Below, piece by piece: positions 4,085-58,371 of a stretch of DNA of 64,000 bases (within the stretch, counting starts at the first letter, position 1; every line of letters starts with the position of its first letter). Position numbers and translations under genes: made by a program. Source of the DNA: Candidatus Omnitrophota bacterium (GTDB taxonomy: Bacteria; Omnitrophota; Gorgyraeia; Gygaellales; Profunditerraquicolaceae); NCBI GenBank assembly GCA_028716245.1, contig JAQUQW010000002.1, positions 72,947-136,946 on the forward strand. Direction: 5' to 3'. The notes under the pieces were generated by a model. That model did not search any database and was not told the origin of the DNA. It was given only the letters and a program-made list of their open reading frames with translations.

Positions 4085-4094
4085 TCTTTAAAAT

Positions 4095-25479: not shown

Positions 25480-25586
25480 AAAAAGAGTATAATGCGCAAT
25501 GAAAACGAGTAGTTTACCCATTGAAAGAATATATGATAAATAGTATATTATCTGTAGATGAAAGAAGGGCAGCAGAAGAGGATGAA

Positions 25587-32900: not shown

Positions 32901-35900
32901 CGTTATTCAGACTTCTGTTTACGGGACCGGCGCGGGCGCCGGAGGCGGTATGTATCTTTTAACCGGCACGCTTGCGGGTTCCGGAGCATTTGCCGCAAAC
33001 GGAGGCAATGGTTATGTTGGAACAGGTTATGTAGGCGGCGGCGGCGGCGGCGGAAGGATCGCGGCTTATTATACTACTTATTCTTATACCGGAAGCGCAA
33101 CTGCTACCGGCGGCACAGGCGCTAATGCCGGCGGCACAGGCACCATTTACGGCTTAATTGACCATTATGTGTTTACGGTTACCAGCCCGCAGAGCGCAGG
33201 CACTGGCTTCACCGCCACAGTAACCGCCAAGGATGTCAACAATACCACTATTCCTTCCGGCGCTAACATTACTCTGACCACTACCGGCTCAGCTAAATTC
33301 TATACCGATAATACCTATATTACCGAGAAGATCCCGGCAACTTATACGCTTGTTTCAGGCGTAAGCCCGACTATTTACATCAAAGATAACGTAGTCCAAA
33401 ACATCATTTTAACCGCTACCGGAAACGGCATAAGCACTGCATCAAGCGCGATTACGGTTAATCCGGGCAACTTAGACCATTTTACAATTACCAGTTACCC
33501 AACAAGCACAACTGCCGGAGATAATTTCGGAGCAAACAATGTCGTGGTAACCGCCTATGATGCCGTTAATAACGTCAAGACTAACTATACCGGAAGCGTT
33601 TATTTTACCTCAACCGATGCCCAGGCAGTTTTGCCTTATACCAGCGCGTCTAAATATACCTTTATAGGCGGAGATAACGGAACGCACACCTTCGCCGGCA
33701 CAGGGTTTACTTTAAAGACAACACCATCTGAGACAATCACGGTTACCGACGGGACAATTTCCCAGGTATCAAGCGCGATTACGGTTAACCCTGCGGCAAC
33801 ACTCGGTTCTTTTACTATTGCGGGTTTTCCTGCAACCACTACGGCCGGCGTTCCTTTCGCCTCACCGGCTAATGATGTTGTAGTTACCGCTAAAGATACC
33901 TATAATAACGTCAAGACTAACTATACCGGAAGCGTTTATTTTACCTCAACCGATGCCCAGGCAGTTTTGCCTTATACCAGCGCGTCTAAATATACCTTTA
34001 TAGGCGGAGATAACGGAACGCACACCTTCGCCGGCACAGGGTTTACTTTAAAGACAACACCATCTGAGACAATCACGGTTACCGACGGGACAATTTCCCA
34101 GGTATCAAGCGCGATTACGGTTAACCCTGCGGCGATTGCTTCTTATGTAATTTCCGCCACTAGCCCGCAGACTGCAGGCGTGGGCTGGAGCGGAAGCGTA
34201 ACTGCCAAGGATGCCTTTGGGAATACGGTGACTACAGATCCGGGAACAGTTGTAACGCTGAGCAGTGCAAGCTCAGCCAAATTCTATGCTTCTCTAACAA
34301 ACGCGAATAGCGATACCGGCGGCAGCGCGACATTGTCATATACTTTATCTTCCGGTGTTATTCCTATATATGTTAGAGATAACAAGGTTGAAGCTATTGC
34401 TTTAACCGCTACGGATGCTCTAACTAAGACCGGAACCTCCAGCGCAATTAGCATTAACGTTGCCCCGGCTAATAAAATCGTCTTTACTTCTGCCGCGCAA
34501 ACTCTGGTCGCCGGAACTGTTTCAACCGCCTATACCGTTCAGGTGCAGGACCAGTATGGAAACTTAAGAACCAGCGACGCGCTGGCGCTAACACTTGGCT
34601 CTAATTCCACAACCGGTGCGTTTGATACCTCCGCGGCCGGAGCCTTTAACGGAACAGTTACCTCCATAACCACAGTAAACGGCATCGGCACCTTCTACTA
34701 CAAAGACACAGTTACCGGCTCGCCTGCAATTACCGTAGCCTACACCGGTCTGACTTCCGGCACCCAAACCCAGACCATTACTGCCGGCGCGATAACGCCA
34801 ACAATAACCTCTGCCTCTTACAAAGCAGGCGCAACCCCCAACACTACCGTTGCTTTTACCGCCGCTAACCCTATACCGATTGGCGGCAAGATCAAGGTAA
34901 CCTTTGACCAGGATTATGATTTAAGCGGAGTACTGGGAGTGGTTTCAGGTAATACCGGAGCAACTGTAACCGTCTCTGACCAGACCTTGATTATTAACGT
35001 CGGCACCGCAATCAGCGCAGGCAGCCCGGTGAGTATCGTTGTCTCAGGGATAAAGAATCCGCTGATCCTTGGTATAACCGGAACCTATGCGGTAAAAACC
35101 TATACCGTAGCTGATGTCTTAATTGACCAAGGCACAGCCGCGGTCAATACCATAGTTGCGCCAATCATAACTCTGCTTACACCTTCAGCCGCGGGAATTA
35201 CCTTAGGCGATACCCAGAGCTACCCGATTACCTGGAGTTATGATGGTGCAATATCCAACAACCTTTCCTTATATTATGCCAATGAGGGCGGATTGGTTTA
35301 TCCGGCAACGCCGAATATTGCTTCAGCAGTAACTAATAGCGGTACCTATACCTGGGTAGTTCCCGATGACCCGCGTTTAGCAACTAAGGTAAAAATAGAA
35401 GATATATTTTATCAGATAATGAAAGACACCACGGACACGCAGTTTAATGCCGGTACGCAGAGTAATACCGTTGTTTCGGGGACCGGCAATGCGGCGGGGG
35501 TAGTTTTATTACCTGGATCTGCACCATATTCTTCCTCTGGTATCTATACTTCCCGTTCTTTGGATACCGGTACCGGCGGAGCGCAGAGCTTTGGAAAATT
35601 AGAGTGGACTGCTAATGTTCCGGCGCAATGCGGAGCAAACGCGGTGAAATTCCAGGTTGCCGCAAACAACGATAATGCCACCTGGAACTTTGTCGGCCCT
35701 GACGGCACAGCGGCTACCTACTTTACTGTTTCCGGCACCAGCATTTCATCCACTCTTAACGGCTTACGTTATATTAAATATAAAGCGTATTTAGCCACTG
35801 CCGATATAAATTACACGCCTACATTACAGGAAGTAAAAGTCGGTTTTGCCAGCCCGACCAGCGCAAACCGCGTAATCTCCAGTGAATCGGCCAATACCTT

Positions 35901-38900
35901 TGTTATGGCAGGTAGGACCAGCGTTTATTATTTGAGCGCACCGGCGGATATCGTTGCCGGGACCACTGCCCAATACACACTCACGCGCAAAGATTCCAAC
36001 GGCACATTGGTAACCGTGGGGAATGAAGCGGCTACTCTGGCTTCCACCTCTACCGGCGCCAATAAGCAGTTCAGGGCCACTGCAGGCGGGGCGGCATTAA
36101 GCCCGTCTCAGATAACCATCCCCGACGGAAGTTCGGCGGTAACTTTCTACTATTACGACGAGAAGATGGGTACTTATAGTATAACTGCTTCGCGCACAGG
36201 CGTAACTTCGGCAACCGACAGCATTAATGTCCTGCACGCAGCCGCCGACCACTTAAGGTTCCAGAGTAATATTACCACTCCGCAGAAGGCCGGCGCTTCT
36301 TTTATGCTGCCCTTGCTTGAGGCGGTGGACCAATACGGGAATATCCTCACCGGCGACTACGGCGCCACTGCTTACGCCGGAACAAAAACGATTTCTTATT
36401 CTCTAAGCGGGCTGGCAAACGCGCCTAACGGGACTCCGAATGATTCCTGGACCACCAGCGTGCCTTTTACCAACGGCACTTCTAACGTAGCTACGAATTT
36501 AATTACTACCTTATACCGGGCGCAGACGACCAGCATCATTCCTAATGACCCGCTGCTTCCGGCATTAACCGCTAATGTCGCCTCTAATGCCATTGTGGTT
36601 AATCCTGAGTTGGCAGTCACCCTTAAATTTACGCAGCAGCCTTCAGCTACTTCATTGATAAATGTGGCGCTGGCCGTGCAGCCGAAAGTAAACATCCAGG
36701 ATACTTACGGCAACCAGACGCATGATACGACCGCAGTTACGCTTTATGATTCTACTCTCAATACCAGTTATCTGGACGGGACAGGCACGATCTCTGCCGT
36801 TGCTAATCCGGTTTCTGCGGTGGATGGCTTGGTAAGCTTTAGCGGGGTTAAATACAGCGGTTTCCCTACCAGCGCATCCAGCACTATTTACCTTTACGCG
36901 CAGGCAGCAGGCCTGGCGCCGGCTTATTCCACTGCCATTACCTTTAACGTTGCCAGCACCTCTACAGTTTCCGCGGTAACTGTGCCGGTGGCTAATTTCA
37001 ATCTTATACCTACCAATGATACTCAAGCGAAGAAATTCGCCGTGTTGAAATTTAGAGTGAATGATACCGGGGATGACGGCATTCCCACTTTAATTGACGG
37101 GATTAAGGTGGACATAGGAGGCACAGGGTTGAATGCTTCCACGGATATTGCTTGGGCCGAACTTTATGATGATACCGCTGCGGCCAGTGTTTCTTCGGTG
37201 ACCGGCGCTGCCATTACCAATACCCAGATACTCTTTGGTGCGGCGGCAAACAATGATTCCCTGGCCGGTTTAACAAGTATTGCCAGCGGGACAAGCCGCA
37301 ATTACACGGTTTATATCTATATGAAGCCGAGCAAGCTTACGGCAGTCGAGGGCAATACCTATACCTTTAATATTAATGAGACAGGGGTTTACGCGGATTT
37401 AGGCTATTCTTCCAAGATGGCCGGCAATAGCGCGGCGGTTACTCCGGTTATCGGGACTATCCAGGTAGACACATCGCATATTGAGGTAGTTAGCGATACA
37501 GGCGCCTCTTCTTTGAGCCTGACTGCCGGGGTGGGCGCCAATATTATCCTGCGCGCCACCGATGCCAATAAGAATATAGACAGCAATTATACCGGCAACC
37601 ACACATTTGTATTTTCAGGGTTAAATCCTGTAACCACTTATAACCCCATGGTGGATGCGACGAATTTTGGCGTGAATAAGACAATCGGTTTTACTAATGG
37701 CGTTTCTACCACGGCCCTTCTGAAAGCCTACAAGAAGGAAACAGGCACGGTATCTGTTACAGAATCCGGACAGAGTTATCTGTGCCATACGCTTTCTGCT
37801 AATGTGGCCGCTGCTTCTGTTAGCAAAATATCCATTGCCAGCGGGAACAGCCAGACTACTGCCATTAACACAGCCCTGTTGCAGCCGTATGTGGCGTTTA
37901 TTTCTGATCTTTATGGCAACCCTGTAAGCGCGGTAAGCGCGACTTTTGGCATCGCCAGCGTTCCTAGCGGAGCAACCGGCCAGTTATTAAGCGTTGTTCC
38001 AGCCTCAAGCGATGTCAACGGCCAGATATCTACTATTTTGACTACAGGTAATCTTGCCGGGACCTACGTGGTTTCCGCGACTTCTGTGGGCCTTACCGGT
38101 TCACCGCTCAGTTTTACTTCCAACGTTCTGGCACCGACGGCAATGAGCAAGATAAGCGGAGATAACCCGTTAGGAAAGAAAGTTACGGAAATCCTGGCTC
38201 CTTTTGTTATCCAGGTAGTTGATGCCACCAGCACGCCTATTCCTAATGTTACGGTGAATTTTGCCATAACCAGCACGCCTTCAGGCGCCACTGGCGCGCT
38301 TTCCGCTGCGCAAGCGGTAACGGATAACAACGGCCAGGCTTCGACTATTTTGACTTTAGGAAATAAAACCGGCACATATACTGTAACCGCTTCATACCTT
38401 TCTTACACTCAAACATTTACCGTAACCGCGAATCCGCAGCCGCCTTATAAAGTTGTTTTAAGCGGGCCCAGTTCCGTCAATGCCGGGGATGCCTCAACAG
38501 TATTTACGCTGAATATCCAGGATCAATATAGTAATGCCAGCCCTGTTTCTGCCAACACAGTGTTTAATTTAACCAATTCGCCTTCTACTACCGGCGGTTT
38601 CTATAGCGATAGCGGGGCAACAATCAGTTTAGGCACGCAGATCACTGTGGCCGGCGCCGCAAGCAGCAATACTTTTTATTACAAAGATACGGTTACCGGC
38701 GCGCCCGTGATTACGGCTGCCCGTTTTAGCGGAGATACGCTTACTACTGTAAGCGCATCGGTTCCTTTAAGCGTGGTGCCCGCGGGATTAAGTTACTTCA
38801 AGGTTAGCGCAGCCGATACCTCGGTAATGACCACCGGCGGTTCGCGCGCAATCACCGTTACCGCCTATGATCTGCAAAATAATATCAAGACAGATGTTAG

Positions 38901-41900
38901 CACAGTGAACGTGGTTTTCTCCGGAGCCAATTCTTCTCCTTCGGCTAGCGCTCCTACCTGCACGAATAACCTGGCAGCAGATACCGCTTTTGGCACAAGC
39001 ACGGCGCTTAATTTTGTAAACGGTGTGGCAACTACTACCTTTAAGGCGTATAAAGCGGAAGTCACGCATATCAAGGCTACTGCCGGCGCAGCGACTACTT
39101 CGGATATCAATGCTTTAAATATCACGGTTAAACATGGGGCAGCCAACCACCTGAAATTCAGCGCGGCATTTACCGAGCCGCAGGGCGGTTTTCAGGCAGG
39201 CGTGGGATTTACTTTAAGCGTGTTGAACGGGGTAGATTTATACGACAATATCTGTGACGGAGCAAATGGCGCGACTGCTTACAGCGGGACAAAGGCAATT
39301 ACCTATGCTTTGAGCGGGACAGCCAATGCGCCGGATGGTTCTGCCCAGGATACCTATACTAACAGCGTTGTATTCAATGCCGGCCTTTCCACTTCAACTT
39401 TAAATACCACTTTGTATCGTGCGCAGACTACCAGTATCACTGCCAGCGATGCGCTTCTAACCGGCATAAACGCCGCTTCAGGTTCAATCATGGTTAATCC
39501 CAAGCCGGTTTCCAAGCTTTTCTTTACGCAGCAGCCTTCGACCGCTTCATTGACAAACGTGGCGCTGACGCAGCAGCCGATAGTTTCCGTAGCGGATATG
39601 TATGGTAATGCCGTAACCTCGGCCGTCGACCAGGTCACCCTGAAGGCTTCCACTACCACCGGCATTTATACCGCGGCAACCAATGGCACTCTTTCCGGCA
39701 CAGCCCTATCGGTAAATCTTGTCAACGGCAAGGCAGTGTTTAGCGGCATAAAATATAGCTACCCTGAAACCATATACCTTAAAGCCTCGGCTGCCAATGC
39801 CGCTGTGGTGGATATATATTCTTTTGGCATCGCCTTTGGCACGGCTACCGACGGGACTCTTACTGCCGGGCCGTTAGTCGAGCCGGCAGAGATATCTTCT
39901 ACGGTCGATTCCGATGGTGCAAGGGTAAATATTTTTGATTTTAAAGTCAGCGATGCCGGCACGGACGGTTATGGCATACCGATAAAACAAATCAGGATTA
40001 ACCGCAATACACTGGCGGATACAACCGGCGGCTGGTCAACTTATATTGCCGGAGCCAAGATTTCCGACGGCACCACCACTCTCTTAGGTACGATTACGGA
40101 TAATGTCCTGACTTTTGGCGCCGGCACCAGCACGATTTACACGGTTGCCGACGCAGGTAATAAGACATTTACCTTAAGCATCTACCTGAAACAAAGCCTG
40201 CCTGTGGGCGCGGACGGAAAGTTCCTCGGCTTCAGTATTAACCCGAATACCGATATAACCGTGGATGCAGTAGGTTCCCAGTTTACCACCGCCACCGCCT
40301 TGACCAGTTCTACTAAGGTGCAGGTAACCATAACCAAATTTATGGTTAGCGCAAGCGCAAGCAGTATGCTGGCGGGTAATGGGATTGCCATCAACATTAA
40401 GGGCACGGACATCAACGGTAACATCGATACCGATTACATCGGAGACAAAGAGATAATCTTTAGCGGGGCAAGCGTTGCTTCAACCGGCACAAACCCTACC
40501 TGTACTAACTATTCCGCAGTAGGCATAAATTTTGGCGGCATAACCCTGGTAAGCTTTGCTGCAGGCCAGAGTTCCTCTACCATAACAATGAAACTATACA
40601 AAGCGGAGACCGCTGTCATTAAAGCCACTACCTCTGATTCTTTGTTTACTACTTCCGCCGCCGATGCTTTGAATATTACGGTTACCGGCGGCGTTGCAAG
40701 CAAGCTTTCCTGGAATACTCAGCCGGTGGCTACAGTAGCAGCTAATGCCCCGTGGTCTGCGTTTAAAGTGAGCGTAGTTGATGCTTATGGAAATACTGCT
40801 TCCAGCGCAATTAATGTAACGGTTGCCCCTACCGGAGGCACTTTGAGTGCGGCAGCAACTGCTCAAGTTGCAGCGGTATCCGGCATAGCGACCTTCGATA
40901 ATTTTGCGGTGTATTGCGCAGCTTATCCGGGGACAGTTACCTTAAATGCTACTGCTGCTGGAGTTACCGCCAGCGGCGCATCTAATAATGTAACCGTAGG
41001 AGAAAAATATGCGATTACAATGAAAGCATTTGATTCGGTAAACGGCAGCCCATTGACCGAAGTCACGCTTAAGATTATCGATTCAAACACCGGCCTACTG
41101 GTTTCCGGCCTTACTAACCCGATAATCGGTAATAGCCCGTTTTCGTTTAATCTGCCTTACGGAAAATATAGTTTTAATTTTAATAAAACCGCCTACGTAG
41201 AGAGCACGGTTAATAAGACTGCGGATGTTCCTGCGGATGCGGTTGACGGCGCCTACGACAATAATATCAGCTGGACGGTGTTTCTGATGTCCACTGCTGA
41301 ATCTCTGGCGGATTACCGGGTATTAAGTAACTTTGTCTATGATGAAACTAATGACCGGATAACCGGCTTGGTGCGGCTGGAGAAAAGAGGTAAGCAGATT
41401 ACCAGCGATGCCATAAATACCCTAAGAACCAGCGCTTTAAATATCTTCGATAGTTCCGACGCGGTTAACCCTAAATATACCGCTTCATTGGCTACCTCCG
41501 ATGCAAACGGCAATTATTATTTTAATATTGATAATGCCGTAGCAGCAAAGGGTTTTGTCAAGGGCAGGGATTATTTTGCCAAGATGACTATTCTCTACGG
41601 CGGAGTTGATTTATCAACGAATGTAACGTATTCGGCGGCTAATGATTTTACGATCTCGGTAATGTCAACTTTAAATACCCTAGCCAACCAGATTGTGGCC
41701 TCGGTTGCATCCGAAGGGGCTCTTACCAGATCACAACTGACCTCGACAATAGAATCTACGGCCGCGGCTACTCAGGCACAGGTTGCCCAGGTAAGTACTC
41801 AGGCAGCGCAGATCTTAACCGCTACAGGCACTACCATACCTGCGCAGATCACTACAGCACAAACAGCGGTAACCGATACCATTGCTACCAAGGTTGAGCC

Positions 41901-42603
41901 GCATGTTGAGTCCGGTATCCTTACCCGTCAAAATACGGTCAAACAGGGCGGAACAGCCACTATCCGTTATCGCGCCGCCGGCAGCGGGCTTGCGCCGGTC
42001 TTAAACGTTTATAACCCTAAGGATGTTTTGCTTCTTGCGAATAAGCCGATGAAAGAAATAGGTGCGACCGGTGTTTATGAATATGACCTGACTTTCCCGA
42101 TTTCCTGGGGCACGGGTGATTTCTCGGTAATCTGTTCTGAATCCACCAAAGGCACGGCAGACGCCTTGGTCATGACCGTTACCCAGTACGATATAGAAAC
42201 CGTCTCCAATAATGTTGCGGCTGTGTTGGGTAATACCGGAGGATTAACTAACTTAAAGGACGTTACTGCTACATTAAGCAGCCAATTTGATAGTATGGAT
42301 AAAATACTGGCCCAGATCAGCAAAGATGTTGCCGGTAAGCTCGGAGAAGCCAAGGGCGCGGTCAATGACCTGGCCGTTGCCTTTAAACAGCTGGAGGACA
42401 TGAGCAAGCAGATTAAGAATATCGGCGGGACAAAAGGCATCAATTTGGAAAAACTTTATGAAGTTTCCAAGGATAAGAAAGCGGACCTCGAGTATTTGAA
42501 GAATAAGAGCGAAGAATTAAAGGCGACCATGGAATTGAATCAGAAGATGCTGGAAAATGCCGGCAAGAAACCGGTAGTGCAGACCTGGTTTGAATTTAAG
42601 TAA
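26980..42603 (+). CDS. giant (5,207 aa) cell-surface protein with signal anchor, BNR/beta-propeller repeats, Gly-rich beta-helix-like regions, FN3-like and many Ig-like domains, and a C-terminal coiled coil
   Basis: Single uninterrupted 15,624-nt ORF with a GGAGG RBS. It has an N-terminal TM anchor and an Asp-box (STDNGATW) with 53-aa propeller-blade repeats. Long Gly/Ala-rich stretches resemble parallel beta-helix/GLUG-like repeats. Dozens of ~100-aa Ig-like (Big-type) units carry recurring TITLTATDA / VTAKD motifs. Confidence 0.85.
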   Translation: MSNRQKAKIATRVILVMLFTAAFGMFLSYLYHHSIEAVETNSVVISNPTATTANASQRKLARATNGDLYAVYARLDGANQQIYYAKSTDNGATWIEQGKAHADVAAEQKEPAIAIDSSDNLYIAWAGKGWGTNTANFNIKYRKYNKATALWDTQESVTDAAYDQFAPALALDSSNNIHVAWYGKGWGTNTANNNIQYRKRTTSWQTQESVTDAAYDQFAPALALDSSNNIHVAWYGKGWGTNTANNNIQYRKKTASWQKQESVTDAAYDQLSPSLALDSADYVYAVWAGKGWGTNTTIDNIEYSKRATLSTDWAANRESVTDSASAQLSPSLALDSADYVYAVWAGKGWGTNTANNNIQYRKRTTAWQGQSGITDLASDQTNPTLFWHPQPTIFTSVKTNIITSGHSFIWTTGSGVKFYASDGIIFPKVYFVLSPANSTPTVGSSTDVTITAAKKDAANADVTVTDYNVATTVSVSADGAAKFTAPSSGNPISLRDIDWKSGAASVTITDDTAQSVTVKAADQNNASITGTTSVSFQPTAADKLLLNHPAAIDAGTRAAYIVTLADARNNNVNAGSGGQVIYLFTTSASANAKFYNAASGGKAITSVTIPSGSSLASAWYYDDTAGTYTITASDASPANGAIGLADAQDTIKVNPAADLSKKYKIKFDNDEAEIGDFRAKDFKPHVKMKRWGEECYFSIEFPESKIPAKDKSVGVEADKIKWKSPDSEAHFYKKGSKQISAKDNKGKSRGFLKNESGALEFEVVLDKKPASNIISLPIETKGLKFYYQGPLTAEEIKQGIVRPDEVVGSYAVYHESKNDGAYNTGKAFHIYRPKVIDATGNTIWGQLDIDAVKGALTITIDQSWLNSAAYPVTIDPEFGYMSIGSSSIPLNNITRGSKFTALVMTPATIGAYLGNTDATASHTAKFAIYKASDSSLAGQTQEVTIPASSTGWYTGVYIVGPSLTAVDYALVAKASTADIMMYFDSGTANQGVSQASVYSDAWPPTASFTSDNYKYSIYDPADITPPTLSNLILYGNVSGSSAYVNGTAQDNQMAKAKVTLSDDTSITLDIQFSEDGSTWGIYNGVANGAGSNSTTGGSTWTAGTYVTVPGITTTPTATNINVNASGAYAATGNGVWKFTTDGAKTLYVRIRDASGNVTSGYVTLPADDLTGATSLTSANCGTLSGGVWNATTSKCDWTPVNGATISGNYSNVGVFTVTSGYTVNLTAGTPLKVHGVTANIAGNLNGDYAGYTGGAGGLKTNWPTGATGGYGGINGGGIGGTANSSPNSSGGGGGGGGYGTAAGSGGSGDAAGGAAGGAGGPILASSTLNGIDINMGAGAGGGGGGGGGDTLLGINGYQGNSGGGAVYLYASTTATVSGTISMNGGAGGAGGAGGGSTDGCYSNRAGNGGGGGGGGAGGGILINGNAVTVSGTLRTNGGAGGAGGAGGDVGCSTGGAGGNLGGSGRIKVFGGSYTITNATFSATGYNTTYNCTSTNSICNSGTIYTQNLPVLASITLDSTAPAGGSITYADGKTSSTSTTITLVDGTDALSGISSKILQRASATYTNDSVGVYSSFSMLATNPVSPYTDSTITAGNAYKYQYVVTDAAGNSAVYASASVVKVFGAINNYLVSATTPQAGGIGWSETVTAKDISGNIVTTAANTATMSSSSANVKFYTNNTYTTQTTTYTLSSGAVTIYVQDTPAVPETITLTATDAALKTGTSGNITVNYPSPAPVAPPAGYTTKYAQPMFVWNAPSGYTVQQYALSIDGGADITGITNTYYRYTGVNLSNAAHTWQVKAQIGGLWTSYCATVNFTVNTASTANDITVSTAVTWDGTKIYDDVTITGTGSITHSANTATKTNWLNLISMGSVMINSGGFIDVSGKGYSGGNGPGPGVTWLGYPTGGGAHGGNGGASASAGGVAYDNVLIPADMGSSGGSDNISNSNGPAGGGFIKLNVSGTLTNNGSIIANGNNGVIQTSVYGTGAGAGGGMYLLTGTLAGSGAFAANGGNGYVGTGYVGGGGGGGRIAAYYTTYSYTGSATATGGTGANAGGTGTIYGLIDHYVFTVTSPQSAGTGFTATVTAKDVNNTTIPSGANITLTTTGSAKFYTDNTYITEKIPATYTLVSGVSPTIYIKDNVVQNIILTATGNGISTASSAITVNPGNLDHFTITSYPTSTTAGDNFGANNVVVTAYDAVNNVKTNYTGSVYFTSTDAQAVLPYTSASKYTFIGGDNGTHTFAGTGFTLKTTPSETITVTDGTISQVSSAITVNPAATLGSFTIAGFPATTTAGVPFASPANDVVVTAKDTYNNVKTNYTGSVYFTSTDAQAVLPYTSASKYTFIGGDNGTHTFAGTGFTLKTTPSETITVTDGTISQVSSAITVNPAAIASYVISATSPQTAGVGWSGSVTAKDAFGNTVTTDPGTVVTLSSASSAKFYASLTNANSDTGGSATLSYTLSSGVIPIYVRDNKVEAIALTATDALTKTGTSSAISINVAPANKIVFTSAAQTLVAGTVSTAYTVQVQDQYGNLRTSDALALTLGSNSTTGAFDTSAAGAFNGTVTSITTVNGIGTFYYKDTVTGSPAITVAYTGLTSGTQTQTITAGAITPTITSASYKAGATPNTTVAFTAANPIPIGGKIKVTFDQDYDLSGVLGVVSGNTGATVTVSDQTLIINVGTAISAGSPVSIVVSGIKNPLILGITGTYAVKTYTVADVLIDQGTAAVNTIVAPIITLLTPSAAGITLGDTQSYPITWSYDGAISNNLSLYYANEGGLVYPATPNIASAVTNSGTYTWVVPDDPRLATKVKIEDIFYQIMKDTTDTQFNAGTQSNTVVSGTGNAAGVVLLPGSAPYSSSGIYTSRSLDTGTGGAQSFGKLEWTANVPAQCGANAVKFQVAANNDNATWNFVGPDGTAATYFTVSGTSISSTLNGLRYIKYKAYLATADINYTPTLQEVKVGFASPTSANRVISSESANTFVMAGRTSVYYLSAPADIVAGTTAQYTLTRKDSNGTLVTVGNEAATLASTSTGANKQFRATAGGAALSPSQITIPDGSSAVTFYYYDEKMGTYSITASRTGVTSATDSINVLHAAADHLRFQSNITTPQKAGASFMLPLLEAVDQYGNILTGDYGATAYAGTKTISYSLSGLANAPNGTPNDSWTTSVPFTNGTSNVATNLITTLYRAQTTSIIPNDPLLPALTANVASNAIVVNPELAVTLKFTQQPSATSLINVALAVQPKVNIQDTYGNQTHDTTAVTLYDSTLNTSYLDGTGTISAVANPVSAVDGLVSFSGVKYSGFPTSASSTIYLYAQAAGLAPAYSTAITFNVASTSTVSAVTVPVANFNLIPTNDTQAKKFAVLKFRVNDTGDDGIPTLIDGIKVDIGGTGLNASTDIAWAELYDDTAAASVSSVTGAAITNTQILFGAAANNDSLAGLTSIASGTSRNYTVYIYMKPSKLTAVEGNTYTFNINETGVYADLGYSSKMAGNSAAVTPVIGTIQVDTSHIEVVSDTGASSLSLTAGVGANIILRATDANKNIDSNYTGNHTFVFSGLNPVTTYNPMVDATNFGVNKTIGFTNGVSTTALLKAYKKETGTVSVTESGQSYLCHTLSANVAAASVSKISIASGNSQTTAINTALLQPYVAFISDLYGNPVSAVSATFGIASVPSGATGQLLSVVPASSDVNGQISTILTTGNLAGTYVVSATSVGLTGSPLSFTSNVLAPTAMSKISGDNPLGKKVTEILAPFVIQVVDATSTPIPNVTVNFAITSTPSGATGALSAAQAVTDNNGQASTILTLGNKTGTYTVTASYLSYTQTFTVTANPQPPYKVVLSGPSSVNAGDASTVFTLNIQDQYSNASPVSANTVFNLTNSPSTTGGFYSDSGATISLGTQITVAGAASSNTFYYKDTVTGAPVITAARFSGDTLTTVSASVPLSVVPAGLSYFKVSAADTSVMTTGGSRAITVTAYDLQNNIKTDVSTVNVVFSGANSSPSASAPTCTNNLAADTAFGTSTALNFVNGVATTTFKAYKAEVTHIKATAGAATTSDINALNITVKHGAANHLKFSAAFTEPQGGFQAGVGFTLSVLNGVDLYDNICDGANGATAYSGTKAITYALSGTANAPDGSAQDTYTNSVVFNAGLSTSTLNTTLYRAQTTSITASDALLTGINAASGSIMVNPKPVSKLFFTQQPSTASLTNVALTQQPIVSVADMYGNAVTSAVDQVTLKASTTTGIYTAATNGTLSGTALSVNLVNGKAVFSGIKYSYPETIYLKASAANAAVVDIYSFGIAFGTATDGTLTAGPLVEPAEISSTVDSDGARVNIFDFKVSDAGTDGYGIPIKQIRINRNTLADTTGGWSTYIAGAKISDGTTTLLGTITDNVLTFGAGTSTIYTVADAGNKTFTLSIYLKQSLPVGADGKFLGFSINPNTDITVDAVGSQFTTATALTSSTKVQVTITKFMVSASASSMLAGNGIAINIKGTDINGNIDTDYIGDKEIIFSGASVASTGTNPTCTNYSAVGINFGGITLVSFAAGQSSSTITMKLYKAETAVIKATTSDSLFTTSAADALNITVTGGVASKLSWNTQPVATVAANAPWSAFKVSVVDAYGNTASSAINVTVAPTGGTLSAAATAQVAAVSGIATFDNFAVYCAAYPGTVTLNATAAGVTASGASNNVTVGEKYAITMKAFDSVNGSPLTEVTLKIIDSNTGLLVSGLTNPIIGNSPFSFNLPYGKYSFNFNKTAYVESTVNKTADVPADAVDGAYDNNISWTVFLMSTAESLADYRVLSNFVYDETNDRITGLVRLEKRGKQITSDAINTLRTSALNIFDSSDAVNPKYTASLATSDANGNYYFNIDNAVAAKGFVKGRDYFAKMTILYGGVDLSTNVTYSAANDFTISVMSTLNTLANQIVASVASEGALTRSQLTSTIESTAAATQAQVAQVSTQAAQILTATGTTIPAQITTAQTAVTDTIATKVEPHVESGILTRQNTVKQGGTATIRYRAAGSGLAPVLNVYNPKDVLLLANKPMKEIGATGVYEYDLTFPISWGTGDFSVICSESTKGTADALVMTVTQYDIETVSNNVAAVLGNTGGLTNLKDVTATLSSQFDSMDKILAQISKDVAGKLGEAKGAVNDLAVAFKQLEDMSKQIKNIGGTKGINLEKLYEVSKDKKADLEYLKNKSEELKATMELNQKMLENAGKKPVVQTWFEFK
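27439..28086 (+). repeat. intragenic tandem repeat array (159-174-nt units encoding propeller-blade repeats), copies 1 and 2 near-identical
   Basis: CAGGAATCCGTGACCGACGCTGCGTATGACCAATTCGCGCCG... recurs at 27439, 27598 and 27757 with a 159-nt period. Copies 3 and 4 share a further near-identical ~78-nt segment (27788-27866 vs 27959-28037). Confidence 0.9.
30847..30870 (+). repeat. (GGT)8 triplet microsatellite encoding poly-Gly inside the giant gene
   Basis: Perfect GGT x8 run. Similar runs occur at 31201-31221 (GGT x7), 31291-31320 (GGCGGCGCC units) and 33037-33054 (GGC x6). Confidence 0.9.
33571..34130 (+). repeat. 333-nt tandem duplication of an Ig-like domain unit with a 227-nt block that is 100% identical
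   Basis: 33571-33797 is identical to 33904-34130. The encoded peptide VKTNYTGSVYFTSTDAQAVLPYTSASKYTFIGGDNGTHTFAGTGFTLKTTPSETITVTDGTISQVSSAITVNPA occurs twice. Confidence 0.9.
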
Positions 42604-42610
42604 GGACAGG

Positions 42611-42680
42611 AATAAAGGGACCGTTTCTATTTTTTAATAATAGAAACGAAGAAAAAAATAGAAGCGGTCCCTTTATTTTA
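42611..42680. repeat. family-3 long inverted repeat immediately after the giant-gene stop
   Basis: AATAAAGGGACCGTTTCTATTTTTT at 42611-42636, a 19-nt spacer, then AAAAAAATAGAAGCGGTCCCTTTATTTT. The spacer contains a partial extra arm copy (ATAGAAACG). Confidence 0.8.
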
Positions 42681-43435: not shown

Positions 43436-43551
43436 AAATAGGGACAGCGACCATTTTTCCCATTCTTTCCGTCATTCCCGCGTAAGTGGGAATCTGATCC
43501 CCGCTTTTGCGGATATGACAATTTTGAAAAAATGGTCGCTGTCCCTATTTA
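43436..43551. repeat. REPIN-like element F (family 1) with an extended 65-nt spacer containing two additional small hairpins
   Basis: Left arm at 43436-43460 and right arm at 43526-43550. The spacer has ATTCCCGCGTAAGTGGGAAT and CCGCTTTTGCGG hairpins. The right arm encodes residues KKWSLSLFI of the downstream signal peptide. Confidence 0.8.
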
Positions 43552-44297
43552 TTTTGTTTTTTATCCCAGCCTGTGCCTGGGCTGAAGTGAGCACTTCGCT
43601 TTGGCAGACCAAAAAATCCCAGCATTTTATTATTTATTATCAGGAAAGCGCCGATGATTTTGTCAATGAGCTGGATGTTTCAGCGGAAAATTATTATAAC
43701 AGCATCGTCGAAGAATTAGGTTTCCGCCGGATGGATTTCTGGAGCTGGGATGACCGGGCAAAGATATATTTATTCAATAACAGCGCCGATTATTTAAATG
43801 AGACCGGCGGCTTGGCCTGGAGCGGGGCGCAGGTTTCGGTAAAGCTACGCACGATCAAGACCTTTATCGGCCAGGAGACTTTTTTCGATTCTATACTTCC
43901 GCATGAGCTGACGCATATAATCTTCCGGGAATTTATCGGTACCAAAACAGAGCTGCCGCTTTGGCTGGATGAAGGTATCGCCTGTTCTCAGGAAAAAAGC
44001 AGCCTGATTTCGCGGATGGATTCAGCCAGGGCGCTGGTTAAGCAGGATACATATTTAAAATTTGATAAACTCTTCCAGATATATAACTCCACGCTTATCG
44101 TGCCGAATGTATTTTATTCCGAGTCCGCATCGATTATCGTTTTTTTGCTAAAAAAATATGACCGGGAATTATTTTTGGATTTCAGCCGGAAGCTTCGCGA
44201 CGGCATGCAGTGGAAAAACGCCCTTTTAAACACGTATCATTTTTCAAATTTTGAAGAAATGGAATCTGCCTGGAAGGATTTTATGTTGAATAAATAG
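43515..44297 (+). CDS. secreted putative zinc metallopeptidase (HExxH ... E)
   Basis: Signal peptide MTILKKWSLSLFILFFIPACAWA. HELTH plus a downstream LDEGIA is consistent with a gluzincin-like fold, but family assignment is uncertain. The stop TAG at 44295-44297 lies inside the REP arm. The ORF track start at 43428 would include the whole of REPIN F. Confidence 0.5.
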   Translation: MTILKKWSLSLFILFFIPACAWAEVSTSLWQTKKSQHFIIYYQESADDFVNELDVSAENYYNSIVEELGFRRMDFWSWDDRAKIYLFNNSADYLNETGGLAWSGAQVSVKLRTIKTFIGQETFFDSILPHELTHIIFREFIGTKTELPLWLDEGIACSQEKSSLISRMDSARALVKQDTYLKFDKLFQIYNSTLIVPNVFYSESASIIVFLLKKYDRELFLDFSRKLRDGMQWKNALLNTYHFSNFEEMESAWKDFMLNK

Positions 44298-44315
44298 GGA
44301 CAGCGACCATTTTTC
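44292..44315. repeat. family-1 REP arm (left) upstream of the RAYT gene
   Basis: AAATAGGGACAGCGACCATTTTTCC. It has no local partner; its inverted partner lies 3' of the transposase gene. Confidence 0.85.
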
Positions 44316-44412
44316 CTTCAGTCGTTCTTTGATAGATTAGCTTAAATATTTTAGTTAGATTTCCTTTTTTCTGGCGTCTATTGATAATAGAAGAAAGGGA
44401 GGAAAAACTAAT

Positions 44413-45084
44413 ATGCCTAGAATTGCCAGAGTTGTAGCGATAGGTCAACCTCACCACATTACACAAAGAGGTAACTATCGGCAAGACGTATTCCTTAACG
44501 CGGATAACCGAAAACAATACCTTGCCTGGATTAATGAATATAGCGTAAAATACGGGGTTCTCGTTTTGGCCCATTGCCTGATGGCAAATCATGTTCACTT
44601 TATCGCTATTCCTAATGAAAGCGATTCGCTGGCTAAAACATTCAATACCGCTCATATGCGTTATTCCCAGTATTTTAATAAAAAGTTGAAGCAGAGCGGG
44701 CATCTTTGGCAGGGACGTTTTTATTCTTGTGTGTTGGATCAATCTCATCTTATACTTGCCGCTCGTTATATTGAAAGGAATCCTGTGCGCGCAGGACGCG
44801 TAGAGAAACCTTGGCAGTGGCCATGGTCAAGCGCCGCCGCCCATACGAATAGGAAGGATAATAAATCGATTGAGTTTGGGGATCTTCTCGGGATTATCGG
44901 CATGTCAAGCACCGCGTGGGAAAAATACATTGATTCCGCGGAAGAGGACAATTTTTTACAGGATATAAGAAAGCATACGTATGCCGGTCGTCCCCTCGGG
45001 GCGCCGGAATTTACTATAGGTTTAGAGGAAAAATGTGGTAGAAGGTTATGCGCGTTACCGATAGGGAGGCCAAGAAAAAGCTAG
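44413..45084 (+). CDS. REP-associated tyrosine transposase (RAYT; IS200-like Y1 HUH transposase), copy 1
   Basis: 223 aa with HUH motif (ANHVHFIAI) and a conserved C-terminal Tyr-helix region (YIERNPVRAGRV). Inverted family-1 REP arms lie 97 nt upstream and directly after the stop. Confidence 0.85.
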   Translation: MPRIARVVAIGQPHHITQRGNYRQDVFLNADNRKQYLAWINEYSVKYGVLVLAHCLMANHVHFIAIPNESDSLAKTFNTAHMRYSQYFNKKLKQSGHLWQGRFYSCVLDQSHLILAARYIERNPVRAGRVEKPWQWPWSSAAAHTNRKDNKSIEFGDLLGIIGMSSTAWEKYIDSAEEDNFLQDIRKHTYAGRPLGAPEFTIGLEEKCGRRLCALPIGRPRKS

Positions 45085-45108
45085 AAAAATGGTCGCTGTC
45101 CCTATTTA
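45085..45108. repeat. family-1 REP arm (right) directly after the RAYT stop codon
   Basis: AAAAATGGTCGCTGTCCCTATTTA, the reverse complement of the arm at 44292-44315. Confidence 0.85.
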
Positions 45109-46008: not shown

Positions 46009-46233
46009 ATGCGTTTTGCGATTTTAGAGCCTAAAGGGGCAATCTGGCGGGGAATGGCTAAAAAAGTAAATCTGCCGGCGGCGGAGGGAGAAATGTGCGT
46101 GCTGGATTTTCACCAGCCTTTTGTAGCCCGGCTTAAAAAAGGCAATATTGTTTTTTCCAATACGCGTATCGCGATAAAAGACGGAATCGCCTTTATGCGT
46201 TCGAATAACCTGACGGTTTTTGCGAATAAATAG
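46009..46233 (+). CDS. atpC: F-type ATPase epsilon subunit, N-terminal beta-sandwich domain only
   Basis: 74 aa. AEGEMCVLDFHQPFVARLKKGNIVF matches the epsilon GE.GILPGHAPL...L.PG core. The C-terminal helical hairpin is absent. Confidence 0.6.
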   Translation: MRFAILEPKGAIWRGMAKKVNLPAAEGEMCVLDFHQPFVARLKKGNIVFSNTRIAIKDGIAFMRSNNLTVFANK

Positions 46234-46235: not shown

Positions 46236-46299
46236 AAATAGGGACAGCGACCATTTTTTCTTGGTCGTTTAGATAAAAAATGGTCGCTGTCCCTATTTA
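46236..46299. repeat. REPIN-like element H (family 1) between epsilon and c subunit genes
   Basis: Arms are at 46236-46260 and 46275-46299. The spacer contains the inner mini-hairpin CGACCA...TGGTCG. Confidence 0.85.
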
Positions 46300-47250: not shown

Positions 47251-48708
47251 ATGAAGATTGAAGCCTTAGACATAAAAGAAATCGGAAGGATCGAAGAGCT
47301 TAAGCAGGGGATTGTGAAAATCAGCGGTTTGCCTAATTGCGCCTATGGGGCTGTAATCGAATTCGATAATGGATTAAAAGGAATGATCGTTGAATTTGAC
47401 GCGCAATTTGCCTTTGGGATTGTTTTTGGGGATGAACGCAGGATTAAGGTCGGCGATACGGTTTCCACCCGCGGCCAGCTGCTTAATGTTCCGGTAGGGG
47501 ATAATTTTATCGGCAGAGTGGTTGATCCTTTGGGTAACCCGATAGACGCAAAAGGTAAAATTGAGCCGGCAGCGGTAAATCCGGTCTTCCATCAGGCATC
47601 CGGGGTTATGGAGCGCGAGCCAATAAGCCATCCTTTGCATACTGGGATAAAAATTATCGATATGCTTATCCCGCTGGGCAAAGGCCAGCGGGAATTGATC
47701 GTCGGAGACCGGCAGATCGGCAAAACCAGCATCAGTTTGGATATGATCATCAATCAAAAAGGCAAAAATGTTATCTGCATTTACTGTTGGATCGGAGGAA
47801 GCAGCGCGGCTTTTAATAAGATTATCCAGGTGCTTAACCAACAGGGTTGTATGGACTTTTGCCTTGCTGTCTGCGCCTCGGCAAGCGCCTCGGCAAGCGA
47901 ACAATATATTTGTCCTTATACCGCCGCGGCATTAGGTGAATATTTTATGTATAATGGTAAGGATGTCCTGGTAATTTTTGACGATTTGACTAAGCACAGC
48001 TGGGTTTACCGGCAGATGTCTTTGCTGCTTGAGCGGGCCCCGGGAAGGGAAGCGTATCCGGGAGATATCTTTTTCTTACATTCACAGCTTATGGAGCGCG
48101 CCGGCCGCCTGAAGAAAGAATTCGGAGGCGGGACAATGACATTCTTGCCGTTAGCCGAAACACTGCAAGGTGATATTACCGGTTATATCTGCTCGAATAT
48201 CGTTTCGATGACCGACGGGCAGATTTATTTAAACTCCGGGCTTTTTCAGGAAGGTTTCAAACCGGCGATCGATTTGGAACTTTCAGTTTCGCGTATCGGA
48301 AGCAAGGTGCAATGCCCGGCCATCCGTAAATTAAGTGAAGGCCTGCGTTATGAATACGTGCAATACCGTTCTTTACTGCGTTTGACCCGCCTGCGCACCA
48401 AACTTAGCCCGGAGAGCGCCCAGCAACTGCAGCGGGGCCGGGCCCTTTATGAGCTTTTGATTCAGGAAAACGGTTCTCCTTTATCTCAGGCAGAGGAGAT
48501 CGCTGTTTTTTTTGCCTTTCGCCAGAAGATACTTGAGTCAATCAGTATCGAGCAGGTAAAATTGTTTAAAAATAATTTCTTTGCCTATTTAGGCAAGCAT
48601 CAGCAGAATTTAGTGGGGCAACTGGATAGCAAAGGTGAGCTTACGGAAGAAATTAAACTGCTTTTGGATAAAACGATAAAAGATTTTTTCCGCAGCCAGG
48701 ATAAATAG
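47251..48708 (+). CDS. atpA: F-type ATPase alpha subunit (divergent)
   Basis: Walker A GDRQIGKTS and alpha-like N-terminal beta-barrel and C-terminal helical domains. It contains a 12-nt exact tandem duplication (47875-47898) encoding ASASASAS. The stop TAG overlaps the REPIN I arm. Confidence 0.8.
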   Translation: MKIEALDIKEIGRIEELKQGIVKISGLPNCAYGAVIEFDNGLKGMIVEFDAQFAFGIVFGDERRIKVGDTVSTRGQLLNVPVGDNFIGRVVDPLGNPIDAKGKIEPAAVNPVFHQASGVMEREPISHPLHTGIKIIDMLIPLGKGQRELIVGDRQIGKTSISLDMIINQKGKNVICIYCWIGGSSAAFNKIIQVLNQQGCMDFCLAVCASASASASEQYICPYTAAALGEYFMYNGKDVLVIFDDLTKHSWVYRQMSLLLERAPGREAYPGDIFFLHSQLMERAGRLKKEFGGGTMTFLPLAETLQGDITGYICSNIVSMTDGQIYLNSGLFQEGFKPAIDLELSVSRIGSKVQCPAIRKLSEGLRYEYVQYRSLLRLTRLRTKLSPESAQQLQRGRALYELLIQENGSPLSQAEEIAVFFAFRQKILESISIEQVKLFKNNFFAYLGKHQQNLVGQLDSKGELTEEIKLLLDKTIKDFFRSQDK

Positions 48709-48768
48709 GGACAGCGACCATTTTTTTGGCCGCTACACTTAGAGAAAAATGGTCGCTGTCCCTATTTT
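48703..48768. repeat. REPIN-like element I (family 1) between alpha and gamma subunit genes
   Basis: Arms are at 48703-48727 and 48745-48768. The first arm contains the atpA stop codon. Confidence 0.85.
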
Positions 48769-52644: not shown

Positions 52645-53883
52645 ATGATATTTTTATATAAGGCTAAGAAAAACCTTAAGGAGGTTGTCGAGGGCAAAAT
52701 CGACGGGGGCAGTGTCGAGCAGGTGCTTGAAGATCTGCAGGCAAAAGGGCTTGTGCCGATTTCCGTCGAGCCGTTAATCGGCCCGCCTGTTTCCGCAGCG
52801 GCATCCGCAAAAACTTCCCCCAAACCCGAAACAGTTTCCAACCCAATCGGGAAATGGGGTTTAAAAAACCTAGTTTTGTTCACCCAGAAACTTTACAATC
52901 TGGTTAATTCCCGCGTAGAGTTACTTAGCGCCTTAAGGCTTTTAGAAAAGGACTGCCAAAATCAGACCGAAAAATTATTACTTTCCGATATCATAAAGAA
53001 TATTAAAGACGGTGTTTCATTTTCCAATTGCCTTAGCCGCTACCCGCAGTATTTCCCGCAATTTTACGTCAATATTGTCCACACCGGCGAGGCAACCGGC
53101 AAGCTCAAAGATTCCCTGATCCAACTTTTGGACTATCTGCGCCGGTTTGAAGATTTAAGGACCAAGGTAAAACAGGCGCTTGCTTATCCAATATTTATGA
53201 CTTTGGTTGGCGTAGGCACGATATTTGTAATGCTTACTTTTGTCCTGCCGAGGCTGGCCGGGATGTTTGAAGATTTTCAGGCGCAGCTGCCCTTACCCAC
53301 ACTTATTTTACTCAATATCGCGAATTTCCTTAAAGCTTATTGGGTATTTGTAATCGGATTTATTGTTATTCTTGTCTTTGCGTTTAAGGTCAACGGCGCA
53401 GGCAAGGAAAGTGTTTTTAGCCGCCTGAAATATCATATTCCCATTGCCAAAGATATTGTTTATAAACAGTCGGTGGCCAACTTTTCCAGAAGTTTATCCC
53501 TGCTTTTGCAAAGCGGAGTGAACCTGCTTTCCGCCTTGGCCGACGCCGGTCCGATAATCGGCAATCCGGTTTATGTCAGCCAACTTGAACAGGTGCGCCG
53601 TGATATCAGCCAAGGCATGCCTTTTTCAGACTCCTTGGCCAAATTCAAAATCTTCCCGGATTTTTTTGTGCAGATGATCCGCGTCGGCGAAGAAGGCGGC
53701 AGGCTGGACAGCGTACTGGCGGATATCGCCGAGTCTTATGAAAAAGAGATTGAGGCAGATTTAAAGGTCGTCAGTTCCCTTATTGAACCGGCGATAATTT
53801 TGGTCCTGGGCCTGGTGATCGGGGCGATGGTTATTGCCATGCTCCTGCCGATATTTAATATGAACAGCCTTGTCGGTGGCTAA
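52645..53883 (+). CDS. gspF: platform protein GspF/PilC
   Basis: 412 aa. The N-terminal FLYKAKKNLKEVVEGKIDGGSVEQVLEDLQAKGLVPISVEP is the typical GspF/PilC start, followed by two T2SSF domains with three TM segments. It carries a family-2 repeat in frame at 52825-52859. Confidence 0.85.
   Translation: MIFLYKAKKNLKEVVEGKIDGGSVEQVLEDLQAKGLVPISVEPLIGPPVSAAASAKTSPKPETVSNPIGKWGLKNLVLFTQKLYNLVNSRVELLSALRLLEKDCQNQTEKLLLSDIIKNIKDGVSFSNCLSRYPQYFPQFYVNIVHTGEATGKLKDSLIQLLDYLRRFEDLRTKVKQALAYPIFMTLVGVGTIFVMLTFVLPRLAGMFEDFQAQLPLPTLILLNIANFLKAYWVFVIGFIVILVFAFKVNGAGKESVFSRLKYHIPIAKDIVYKQSVANFSRSLSLLLQSGVNLLSALADAGPIIGNPVYVSQLEQVRRDISQGMPFSDSLAKFKIFPDFFVQMIRVGEEGGRLDSVLADIAESYEKEIEADLKVVSSLIEPAIILVLGLVIGAMVIAMLLPIFNMNSLVGG
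52825..52859. repeat. family-2 repeat unit (CGAAACAGTTTCC + CCCAATCGGG + GGAAATGGGG modules) embedded in frame in gspF
   Basis: Translated as PKPETVSNPIGKWG in the linker after the N-terminal cytoplasmic domain. The ORF stays open. Confidence 0.75.
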
Positions 53884-53884: not shown

Positions 53885-53950
53885 AAATAGGGACAGCGAC
53901 CATTTTTTGTTCGCTATCCCTATTAAAAAAATGGTCGCTGTCCCTATTTA
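53885..53950. repeat. REPIN-like element J (family 1) directly after the gspF stop
   Basis: Arms are at 53885-53908 and 53925-53950. The spacer contains a partial extra arm copy (TCGCTATCCCTATT). Confidence 0.85.
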
Positions 53951-55866: not shown

Positions 55867-55921
55867 CCCCATTTCCCCTTCAGGTCCGAAACAGTTTCGA
55901 TTCTAAAGAGGAAATGGGGCC
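55867..55921. repeat. family-2 repeat: 10-bp stem CCCCATTTCC/GGAAATGGGG enclosing the palindrome CGAAACAGTTTCG
   Basis: Perfect inverted repeat at 55867-55876 and 55912-55921, with the palindromic core at 55888-55900. It lies between the pilO-like and gspG genes. Confidence 0.8.
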
Positions 55922-58306: not shown

Positions 58307-58371
58307 TAAATAGGGACAGCGACCATTTTTTCTTGGTCGCGTAGATGAAAAAATGGTCGCTGTCCCTATTT
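58307..58371. repeat. REPIN-like element K (family 1)
   Basis: Arms are at 58307-58331 and 58347-58371, with the inner mini-hairpin CGACCA...TGGTCGC in the spacer. Confidence 0.85.

Follow-up and report, generated by a model that had tools for sequence, protein, structure and literature searches.

What kind of system does a single tyrosine transposase gene form with a short repeat that both brackets it and is scattered through the DNA around it? The question is raised by a 64,000-nt stretch (the window) of contig JAQUQW010000002.1 from a Candidatus Omnitrophota bacterium, in which a gene for a 223-aa Y1 transposase lies between inverted arms that recur nearby as inverted pairs, or doublets. 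A sequence-only reading of this stretch had taken the locus for a canonical arrangement of a RAYT (REP-associated tyrosine transposase, where REP denotes repetitive extragenic palindromic sequences) that mobilises REPIN-like doublets. The logic of that reading stands, in that the gene is bracketed, the doublets are polymorphic and the locus is fixed, but the word canonical does not, since the enzyme appears to be a TIRYT (a tyrosine transposase associated with terminal inverted repeats) and the arm has no GTAG tag and does not fold on itself. The locus is probably a TIRtron, that is, a single-copy TIRYT gene between its own 23-nt terminal inverted repeats, accompanied by REPIN-like satellite doublets.

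The arm, AAATAGGGACAGCGACC(A/G)TTTTT (23-mer AAATAGGGACAGCGACCRTTTTT), has 21 exact matches in the window, while 100 dinucleotide-preserving shuffles of the window gave an expectation of 0 and a maximum of 0; the claim that inverted arms bracket the transposase gene and recur as dispersed pairs is thereby borne out. Two of the 21 arms surround the gene, 18 are paired in nine inverted doublets, and a single arm stands alone. The two flanking arms are mutually inverted and enclose the open reading frame (ORF), with 98 nt from the end of the left arm to the ATG and the right arm beginning directly behind the TAG stop, with no base between; an arm of 24 nt lying 97 nt upstream of the gene had been described, against an exact arm of 23 nt and a gap of 98 nt here. 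The parts of the TIRtron are as follows (L206 and L208 are related loci):

44292–44314, + strand: left terminal inverted repeat, exact 23-mer; an equivalent repeat lies 5' of the ATG in homologues
44315–44412, + strand: 98-nt leader from left arm to ATG, conserved by alignment in L206 and L208 and part of a high-identity tract; presumably holds the promoter and ribosome-binding site (AAGGGAGG)
44413–45084, + strand: predicted TIRYT gene (RAYT Group 1 / TnpA-Y1 subclass 2.1), 223 aa, with the HUH motif H60-V-H62, Y119 in YIERNP and a helical C-terminal tail
45085–45107, − strand: right terminal inverted repeat; its first base directly follows the stop codon

The Y1 identity proposed from the sequence was upheld by a profile search, in which Pfam Y1_Tnp (PF01797) scored 53.2 bits against a cut-off of 23, with residues 15–123 matching profile positions 8–121 of 121. 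Alignments of 18 and of 26 homologues show no variation at H60-V-H62 and Y119 (YIERNP), and H60, H62, W99, Q100 and Y119 are all invariant or nearly so among aligned homologues. The AlphaFold (AF2) model has a mean predicted confidence (pLDDT) of 86.6; its best Foldseek match in the PDB is E. coli TnpA-REP (4er8, E = 2.8e-9), followed by IS608, ISDra2 and IS200 TnpA. The 223-aa protein is a Y1 HUH enzyme, presumably a catalytic one. Within the NCBIfam models, REP_Tyr_transpos (NF047646) gave the top match, yet its 70.7 bits fall under the cut-off of 80, and the IS200 model NF033573 reached 19.9 against a cut-off of 55. With RAYT and TIRYT sequences rebuilt from the published alignment of Di Nocera et al. 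2013, blastp identity to TIRYTs extends over the full length (GSU2396 47%, E = 2e-67; aba 2776 45%; pca 3049 41%; about 212–226 aligned positions), compared with 24–28% to canonical RAYTs in the catalytic core only. The C-terminal tail IR.H..GRP.G..F...LE...R.L....GRP is shared by the window protein and the published TIRYTs, and it is helical in the model (residues 141–208). Because the protein scores under the REP_Tyr_transpos cut-off and resembles TIRYTs over its full length (41–47%) but RAYTs in the core alone (24–28%), it appears to be a TIRYT and not a canonical RAYT.

It has been reported by Quentin et al. 2018 that 20 of 26 TIRYTs and 291 of the 292 Group 1 RAYTs of Bertels fall in TnpA-Y1 subclass 2.1 (PMC6006769), whose members have NHVH, W[EQ] and Y..xNP as motifs, 238 aa as their median length and a C-terminal tail with conserved secondary structure. 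The 223-aa protein fits this description. Quentin et al. also give the subclass a C-terminal domain resembling a helix-turn-helix (Bac_DnaA_C, HTH_23, HTH_28). A protein collection contains more than 7,600 relatives at E <= 1e-10. There is one TIRYT gene in the 64-kb window and one in each 20-kb relative.

The arm also differs from a REP. Folded as single-stranded DNA (ssDNA), a single arm is unstructured (−0.9 kcal/mol, z = 0.0), and the GT[AG]G tag is absent from it; because it has neither a 5' GT[AG]G nor the ability to fold by itself, it is classed as a terminal inverted repeat. The doublets fold into a 23-bp hairpin with a T-rich tail at −25.5 to −26.2 kcal/mol (z = −11 to −13). The palindromic unit is the doublet, not the single arm. 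Of the features by which REPINs are recognised, an inverted pair, a short spacer, a long hairpin, many copies and a cognate single-copy enzyme are found in the window, and a palindromic unit is not. A self-hairpin of the single window arm, an idea drawn from related variants and a bulged AAAT(a)GG/CCATTT pairing, was ruled out by the same folding values. Some related arm variants are self-complementary (L128, z = −3.9; L132, z = −4.7), and 102 repeat variants together give a weak self-hairpin signal (mean stem 5.5 vs 4.6 in the control).

The inverted repeats of TIRtrons carry the motif GGGGWSAS (Di Nocera et al. 2013, PMC3733652). The window arm was not recognised in the sequence-only reading; its kind appears to be already known, as AGGGACAG agrees with GGGGWSAS at 7 of 8 positions, the first motif base being A. 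The counterpart in relatives is GGGGACAG (L128, L130), and in other clades GGGGACGC, GGGGACAC or GGGGTCAG. Among 183 arm copies from outside the window, only AATAGGGACAGCGACC[A/G]TTTT is conserved, together with a weak AT-rich palindromic extension of 1–3 nt. The exact 20-mer core of the arm occurs in at least 120 stretches of species-representative genomes; those listed are mostly Omnitrophota, and metagenome-assembled genomes (MAGs) labelled Planctomycetes, Nitrospirota, several Deltaproteobacteria, Clostridia, Desantisbacteria and others are also among them. Such systems had been said to be described in proteobacteria; with the exact 20-mer in MAGs labelled as many phyla, they are not confined there. 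A DNA uptake sequence was considered and ruled out by the sharing of the arm across phyla and its link to the transposase.

Arm and enzyme vary together across genomes. Identical arms flank full-length homologues of 50–65% identity. A metagenome scan returned 80 homologues (41–65% identity), nearly all bracketed by inverted repeats with a GGGAC core, typically about 35–40 nt before the ATG and about 5–20 nt past the stop. These repeats have a common (A/G)GGGAC core followed by variable bases (ACAGCGACC, ACAGACACC, ACAGCGCCC, ACAGTCACC, ACGCTACCC, ACACCATAC and others). Within the 7 nt after GGGAC, mismatches average 0.5 at protein identities of at least 70% and about 4 at 40–45% (about 60 homologues); the Spearman correlation of mismatch with protein identity is rho = −0.35, a value reached by 0 of 500 label permutations. 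This pattern indicates that arm and protein co-diverge and that the arm is probably the cognate site of the enzyme. A family-wide code of this form (a GGGAC core plus about 7 specificity bases), taken with the substrate set and the natural filled and empty sites of the locus, makes the recognition and cleavage rules of the group directly testable. In 39 of 62 loci a TTGAC/T box directly follows the upstream repeat, and because of this position, binding of the enzyme there could repress its own gene. Two paralogues have repeats of their own, L049 (30% identical; GGGGTCAG...) and L065 (43%; GGGGACAC...). In the latter, a Desulfobulbaceae TIRYT, GGGGACACTATACC repeats lie around the gene at 3932–3950 and 4825–4843, and one window-type arm lies at 4770–4792 between the upstream repeat and the gene, so that arm types are mixed in one TIRtron.

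The satellite copies in the window are the following:

16776–16839: doublet, spacer family B reversed; ssDNA hairpin −25.5 kcal/mol, z = −12.9
20334–20400: doublet with a unique 21-nt spacer
25415–25478: doublet, spacer family B; R position is G in the left arm and A in the right arm
26213–26276: doublet, family B reversed; in-frame read-through inside the DUF2341 ORF 25521–26927
26861–26883, + strand: solo arm, within the 3' end of ORF 25521–26927
43436–43550: doublet, 69-nt spacer with an unrelated small palindrome; right arm probably inside the 5' end of the Peptidase_MA_2 coding sequence
46236–46298: doublet, spacer family A; between a 74-aa ATP-synt_DE_N gene and atpE
48703–48767: doublet, family B; the upstream ATP synthase gene takes its TAG stop from the arm; L206 lacks this doublet
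53885–53949: doublet whose spacer is a degenerate third arm
58308–58371: doublet, spacer family A; about 94% identical to L208 18608–18674

Most coordinates first proposed for these sites were right, and those at 25424, 26214, 26860 and 58307 were off by 1–9 nt; the spacers, put at 13–65 nt, measure 17–21 nt between the 23-nt arms, with 69 nt at 43436 as the exception. The density of about one site per 6 kb is also correct, but the spread is uneven, with no copies in window 1–16.7 kb and none within a 15.6-kb ORF at 26980–42603. Most spacers in this lineage start with (C)TGGTCG, a degenerate third copy of the arm, and they group into families. Over many genomes, the lengths of 54 distinct doublets peak at 63–65 nt, with a mode of 64 nt.

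The doublets are insertion-polymorphic at intergenic sites between related Omnitrophota genomes. The nearest species-representative relative of the window genome is L004, with 77% nucleotide identity over one gene block. The site syntenic with doublet 53885 is empty in L004 and L206, and in L208 it is occupied by a doublet of another spacer family. Doublet 46236 is present in L121 (97.6%) and absent in L122 (92% nucleotide identity), L123, L124 and L208. L208 has 12 arms in 20.7 kb, and its doublets occupy three junctions at which the window has none; the junction between T2SSF and the next gene is filled in both, with different spacer families. No window-type doublet was found in the 20.7 kb of L206; at one junction that holds the window type in L208, L206 has instead a doublet from a different GGGAC-type family. 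Some copies are close matches: doublet 25415–25478 is 95.7% identical to L208 7577–7645. Ancient conserved regulatory sites were ruled out, since the doublet sites are not orthologous. No target-site duplication was detected among the 54 distinct doublets (direct repeats abutting the doublet are missing in 35, and repeat lengths are not above those of shuffled pairings), which fits HUH chemistry and argues against a DDE-type MITE (a miniature transposable element with inverted repeats). Orientation, read from the partial third arm in the spacer, was 8 vs 2 in an automated count (p = 0.11) and about 12–13 vs 3 by hand, so a strand bias of the doublets is suggestive only.

In addition, the repeats leave traces in assemblies. 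Contig L121 starts within an arm, and in L205 (Logan SRR22315504, 467–1039) the ATP-synt_DE_N gene of window 46009–46233 and the 88-aa gene found at window 58387 are joined directly, with a family A doublet between them; this is probably a chimeric assembly through the repeat and less likely a real 12-kb deletion. The repeats thus break and mis-join metagenome assemblies.

Genes in the window lie nearly all on the + strand, and the intergenic doublets sit between co-directional genes, 0–7 nt past a stop and 10–20 nt ahead of the next start. Arms supply the stop codons of two upstream genes (44295–44297 and 48706–48708), and two further upstream stops abut or overlap an arm. The DUF2341 ORF 25521–26927 passes in frame through a full doublet (…NRDSDRFSPSETTKKRSLSLF…) and also through the solo arm near its 3' end, and its DUF2341 Pfam match (residues 188–277) extends across the inserted doublet. 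The right arm of doublet 43436 codes for a segment of the next gene's probable signal peptide. The view that arms lie nearly always at gene boundaries is accurate for most sites but not for the 26213 doublet, the 26861 solo arm and the right arm of 43436, the first two lying inside an ORF and the last in likely coding sequence. The repeats rewrite gene ends, with new stop codons, in-frame insertions and a signal-peptide segment. A look-up of the 87-aa neighbour of doublet 16776 gave no match.

The gene itself keeps one place. In three genomes (that of the window, L206/L207 at 91% aa identity and L208 at 85% aa identity) its neighbours are a Peptidase_MA_2 gene and a response-regulator/GGDEF gene, and it lies upstream of the ATP synthase operon. 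The surroundings of homologues of 76% identity are unrelated, with no doublets nearby. The synonymous divergence (dS, Nei-Gojobori) of the TIRYT gene is 0.37 between the window and L208 and 0.27 between the window and L206, while six syntenic neighbours have dS values of 1.2–2.6 or are saturated. The high-identity tract shared with L208 is the TIRtron interior, 44345–45065, between the arms; that shared with L206 runs from about 42.84 kb up to the right arm and ends there. In doublet families A and B, the arms are identical between the window and L208 and the spacers are 80–85% identical, about the divergence expected from a dS of 0.37. On the simplest reading of these values, the cassette, and the doublet families with it, would share a more recent ancestor than the host genomes. 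Because the dS of the TIRYT gene is far below that of its neighbours and the similar tract ends at the arms, a lateral replacement of the cassette with breakpoints at the arms is suggested; nucleotide-level constraint on the whole gene is unlikely to explain the low dS. The wider proposal that Group 1 RAYTs, at present described as single-copy genes lacking REPINs, can sustain large REPIN-like populations while their gene cassette is laterally replaced with breakpoints exactly at the arms is put forward only tentatively, being more doubtful than not. If true, the arms would be recombination or integration sites for a Y1 enzyme, or portable homology between diverged genomes, and this would account for the presence of one 20-nt arm in MAGs from many phyla alongside a gene whose position seems fixed in any one lineage.

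The following mechanism is proposed for the TIRtron. The TIRYT would recognise the arm through the GGGAC core and the next ~7 specificity bases, and one DNA strand would be nicked and rejoined through Tyr119 with an HUH-bound metal. The substrate would be single-stranded DNA, in which a doublet could snap into its 23-bp hairpin. The arm-spacer-arm doublets of about 64 nt and some solo arms would be non-autonomous and most likely moved in trans by the TIRYT; doublets would be excised and pasted without target-site duplication into AT-rich intergenic DNA beside stop codons. The gene would keep one locus per lineage, and the cassette between the arms would be laterally replaceable, with breakpoints at the arms. 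That the window protein itself mobilises the doublets in trans is likewise a prediction.

Several observations weigh against the TIRtron interpretation. No experimental test of any TIRYT was found in the literature searched. L206, L209 and L211 have the gene and arms and show no doublets within 12–21 kb of sequence, and therefore the gene does not always yield a doublet population. A comparison of filled with empty sites gave a clean junction on the right but AT-rich, rearranged ones on the left, and neither exact boundaries nor a target rule could be derived. A Pfam scan of the C-terminal tail alone returned nothing at E up to 10, which leaves a DNA-binding role of the tail unsupported. Copy number and single-copy status refer to the 64 kb and the 20-kb relatives, and the phylum labels of the arm-bearing stretches come from MAGs and may be affected by mis-binning.

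Three other explanations were considered. The gene and its arms could be an ordinary autonomous insertion sequence (IS), a transposing and horizontally spreading unit whose doublets are short-lived MITEs. The arms do hug the gene like IS ends and bound the low-dS tract, the 76%-identical homologues stand in unrelated contexts, the exact arm is present in many phyla, and of the five RAYT groups Group 1 resembles IS elements most, with duplicates at 6.3% and plasmid-borne copies at 1.2% (Bertels 2017, PMC5581495). This explanation is nevertheless unlikely: there is one copy in 64 kb and one per 20-kb relative, three genomes with synonymously saturated neighbour genes share the locus, and the IS200 model stays far under its cut-off (19.9 vs 55). 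Relatives of the protein on 28 plasmids are all at most 35% identical, no close phage relative is known from the searches (one partial phage match to the protein, and no exact arm in viral contigs), and spacers about 15–20% diverged between species with intact arms show that the doublets are not short-lived. A canonical REP/REPIN-RAYT, with a Group 2/3-type RAYT recognising palindromic GTAG-tagged REPs arranged as REPINs, would give the same layout, namely a single Y1 gene between inverted repeats, dispersed doublets and a fixed locus, and both the top NCBIfam match and the top structural match point towards it. It is very improbable in view of the score of 70.7 under a cut-off of 80, the core-only identity to RAYTs, an arm without GT[AG]G tag or self-structure (z = 0), and an exact arm common to many phyla, unlike lineage-specific REPs.

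The doublets might, on the other hand, be primarily host regulatory hairpins (terminators, attenuators or mRNA stabilisers) under host selection, with the link to the transposase secondary. Their positions between co-directional genes just past stops and before starts, the 23-bp hairpin followed by a T-rich tail, and arms that stay invariant while spacers drift speak for this reading. Presence and absence vary at the same sites in close relatives, however, with none in the same operons of L206; one site can hold different repeat families depending on the genome, and the arm type tracks the transposase clade. A terminator scan left the full doublet hairpins unflagged. This account is improbable, and the doublets may have a regulatory side-effect. 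A known RNA family was also considered, and Rfam gave 0 matches in the window. The TIRtron with satellite doublets, which combines the enzyme class, the arm and the mobility data, is preferred.

Other repeat systems are present in the same DNA. A second Y1 gene (157 aa, 11312–11788, − strand) encodes a protein 34% identical to the TIRYT, with 42 bits for Pfam Y1_Tnp and 77.4 for REP_Tyr_transpos against the cut-off of 80. On both sides the gene has a distinct inverted repeat, CGAAACTGTTTCC...GGGAAACGGGGG, with arms near 11275–11289 and 11821–11835; the repeat has 11 matches in the window against 0.36 expected. This is a second RAYT-like system within the same 64 kb. Copies related to its repeat are located at:

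22488–22564: copy related to the second repeat
26952–26968: copy related to the second repeat
52825–52841: copy related to the second repeat
55867–55919: copy related to the second repeat
62774–62811: copy related to the second repeat

A third repeat family, AATAAAGGGACCGTTTCTATTTTTT, has a GGGAC core and the same architecture, with doublets at 4092–4158 and 42611–42677 and no cognate gene in the window; the similar family GGGGACGGTTCTATTT fills the T2SSE|T2SSF junction in L206. Unrelated small palindromes also occur at doublet junctions, such as GTCATTCCCGCGTAAGTGGGAATC… in the spacer of doublet 43436 (window 43459–43527) and the GTCATTGCGAGG…CTCGCAATGAC types in L206 (9035–9110) and L208 (14375–14420). 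Several miniature elements seem to use these operon junctions as common landing sites. Small GIY-YIG ORFs are found at differing sites (L206 7908–8198; L208 14421–14711), including inside the ATP synthase operon of L208. Window 26980–42603 is a single ORF of 5,207 aa with repetitive Ig-like and glycine-rich segments, and homologues of it lie upstream of the same locus in L208 (4,317 aa called, running past the end of the locus) and L206 (1,536 aa). A bAvd and reverse-transcriptase pair upstream of the giant-gene homologue in relatives (L206 1–1458) has the look of a diversity-generating retroelement.

Compared with known systems, the locus shares with IS200/IS605 elements and their palindrome-associated miniature derivatives the Y1 HUH domain, the lack of target-site duplication and the small non-autonomous derivatives. 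It differs from them in having no subterminal hairpins and no tnpB, in being a single copy at a fixed locus, and in its true inverted-repeat ends. The E. coli REPtron, TnpA-REP with REP and BIMEs (bacterial interspersed mosaic elements) (Ton-Hoang 2012; Messing 2012; 4er8), is the top structural match and has the same HUH and Tyr chemistry and a repeat-flanked gene; its 165-aa enzyme, however, is only 19–25% identical and has no long C-terminal tail, and its substrate is a GTAG-tagged imperfect hairpin that is absent at the window locus. The REPIN-RAYT systems known from Pseudomonas and enterobacteria (Groups 2 and 3; Bertels & Rainey 2011) resemble the locus in having a single-copy, repeat-flanked Y1 gene at a fixed locus, non-autonomous inverted doublets with long hairpins that come and go intergenically, and co-evolution of repeat and enzyme. 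They differ in the enzyme, which belongs to another group, and in the repeat, since a single window unit is no palindrome and lacks the GTAG tag; moreover, the window arm is shared across phyla and the gene appears to have been laterally replaced, in contrast to the vertical inheritance described for REPIN-RAYT systems.

The closest likeness is to the TIRtrons and TIRYTs (PMC3733652), which correspond to subclass 2.1 (PMC6006769) and to RAYT Group 1 (PMC5581495), with 41–47% full-length identity including the C-terminal tail. The motifs NHVH, WQ and Y..xNP and a gene at a set distance between terminal inverted repeats are those of TIRYTs; a repeat close to GGGGWSAS (7 of 8 positions), singles and dimers elsewhere in the genome and a wide phylogenetic spread are those of TIRtrons. 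The differences are the first motif base, A here (AGGGACAG), and the host, as Omnitrophota were unsampled by those surveys. Mentions of TIRYTs are scarce in the literature searched, and the arm string was found in no microbial paper, the one text match being a study of human hearing-loss loci. TIRYTs are the largest and most widespread RAYT group, and the current summary of the field assigns them no REPINs; according to Bertels & Rainey, REPINs are associated only with Groups 2 and 3. For Group 1, a mean of about 12 copies of the flanking 16-mer per replicon has been reported (Bertels 2017, PMC5581495), compared with 21 arms in 64 kb here. The co-divergence of arm and protein, the insertion polymorphism, the lack of target duplication and the apparent low-dS cassette replacement have not previously been described for the TIRYT class, and the locus supplies a substrate set for it, consisting of an invariant 23-nt arm, doublets of about 64 nt, a 223-aa enzyme and natural filled and empty sites.

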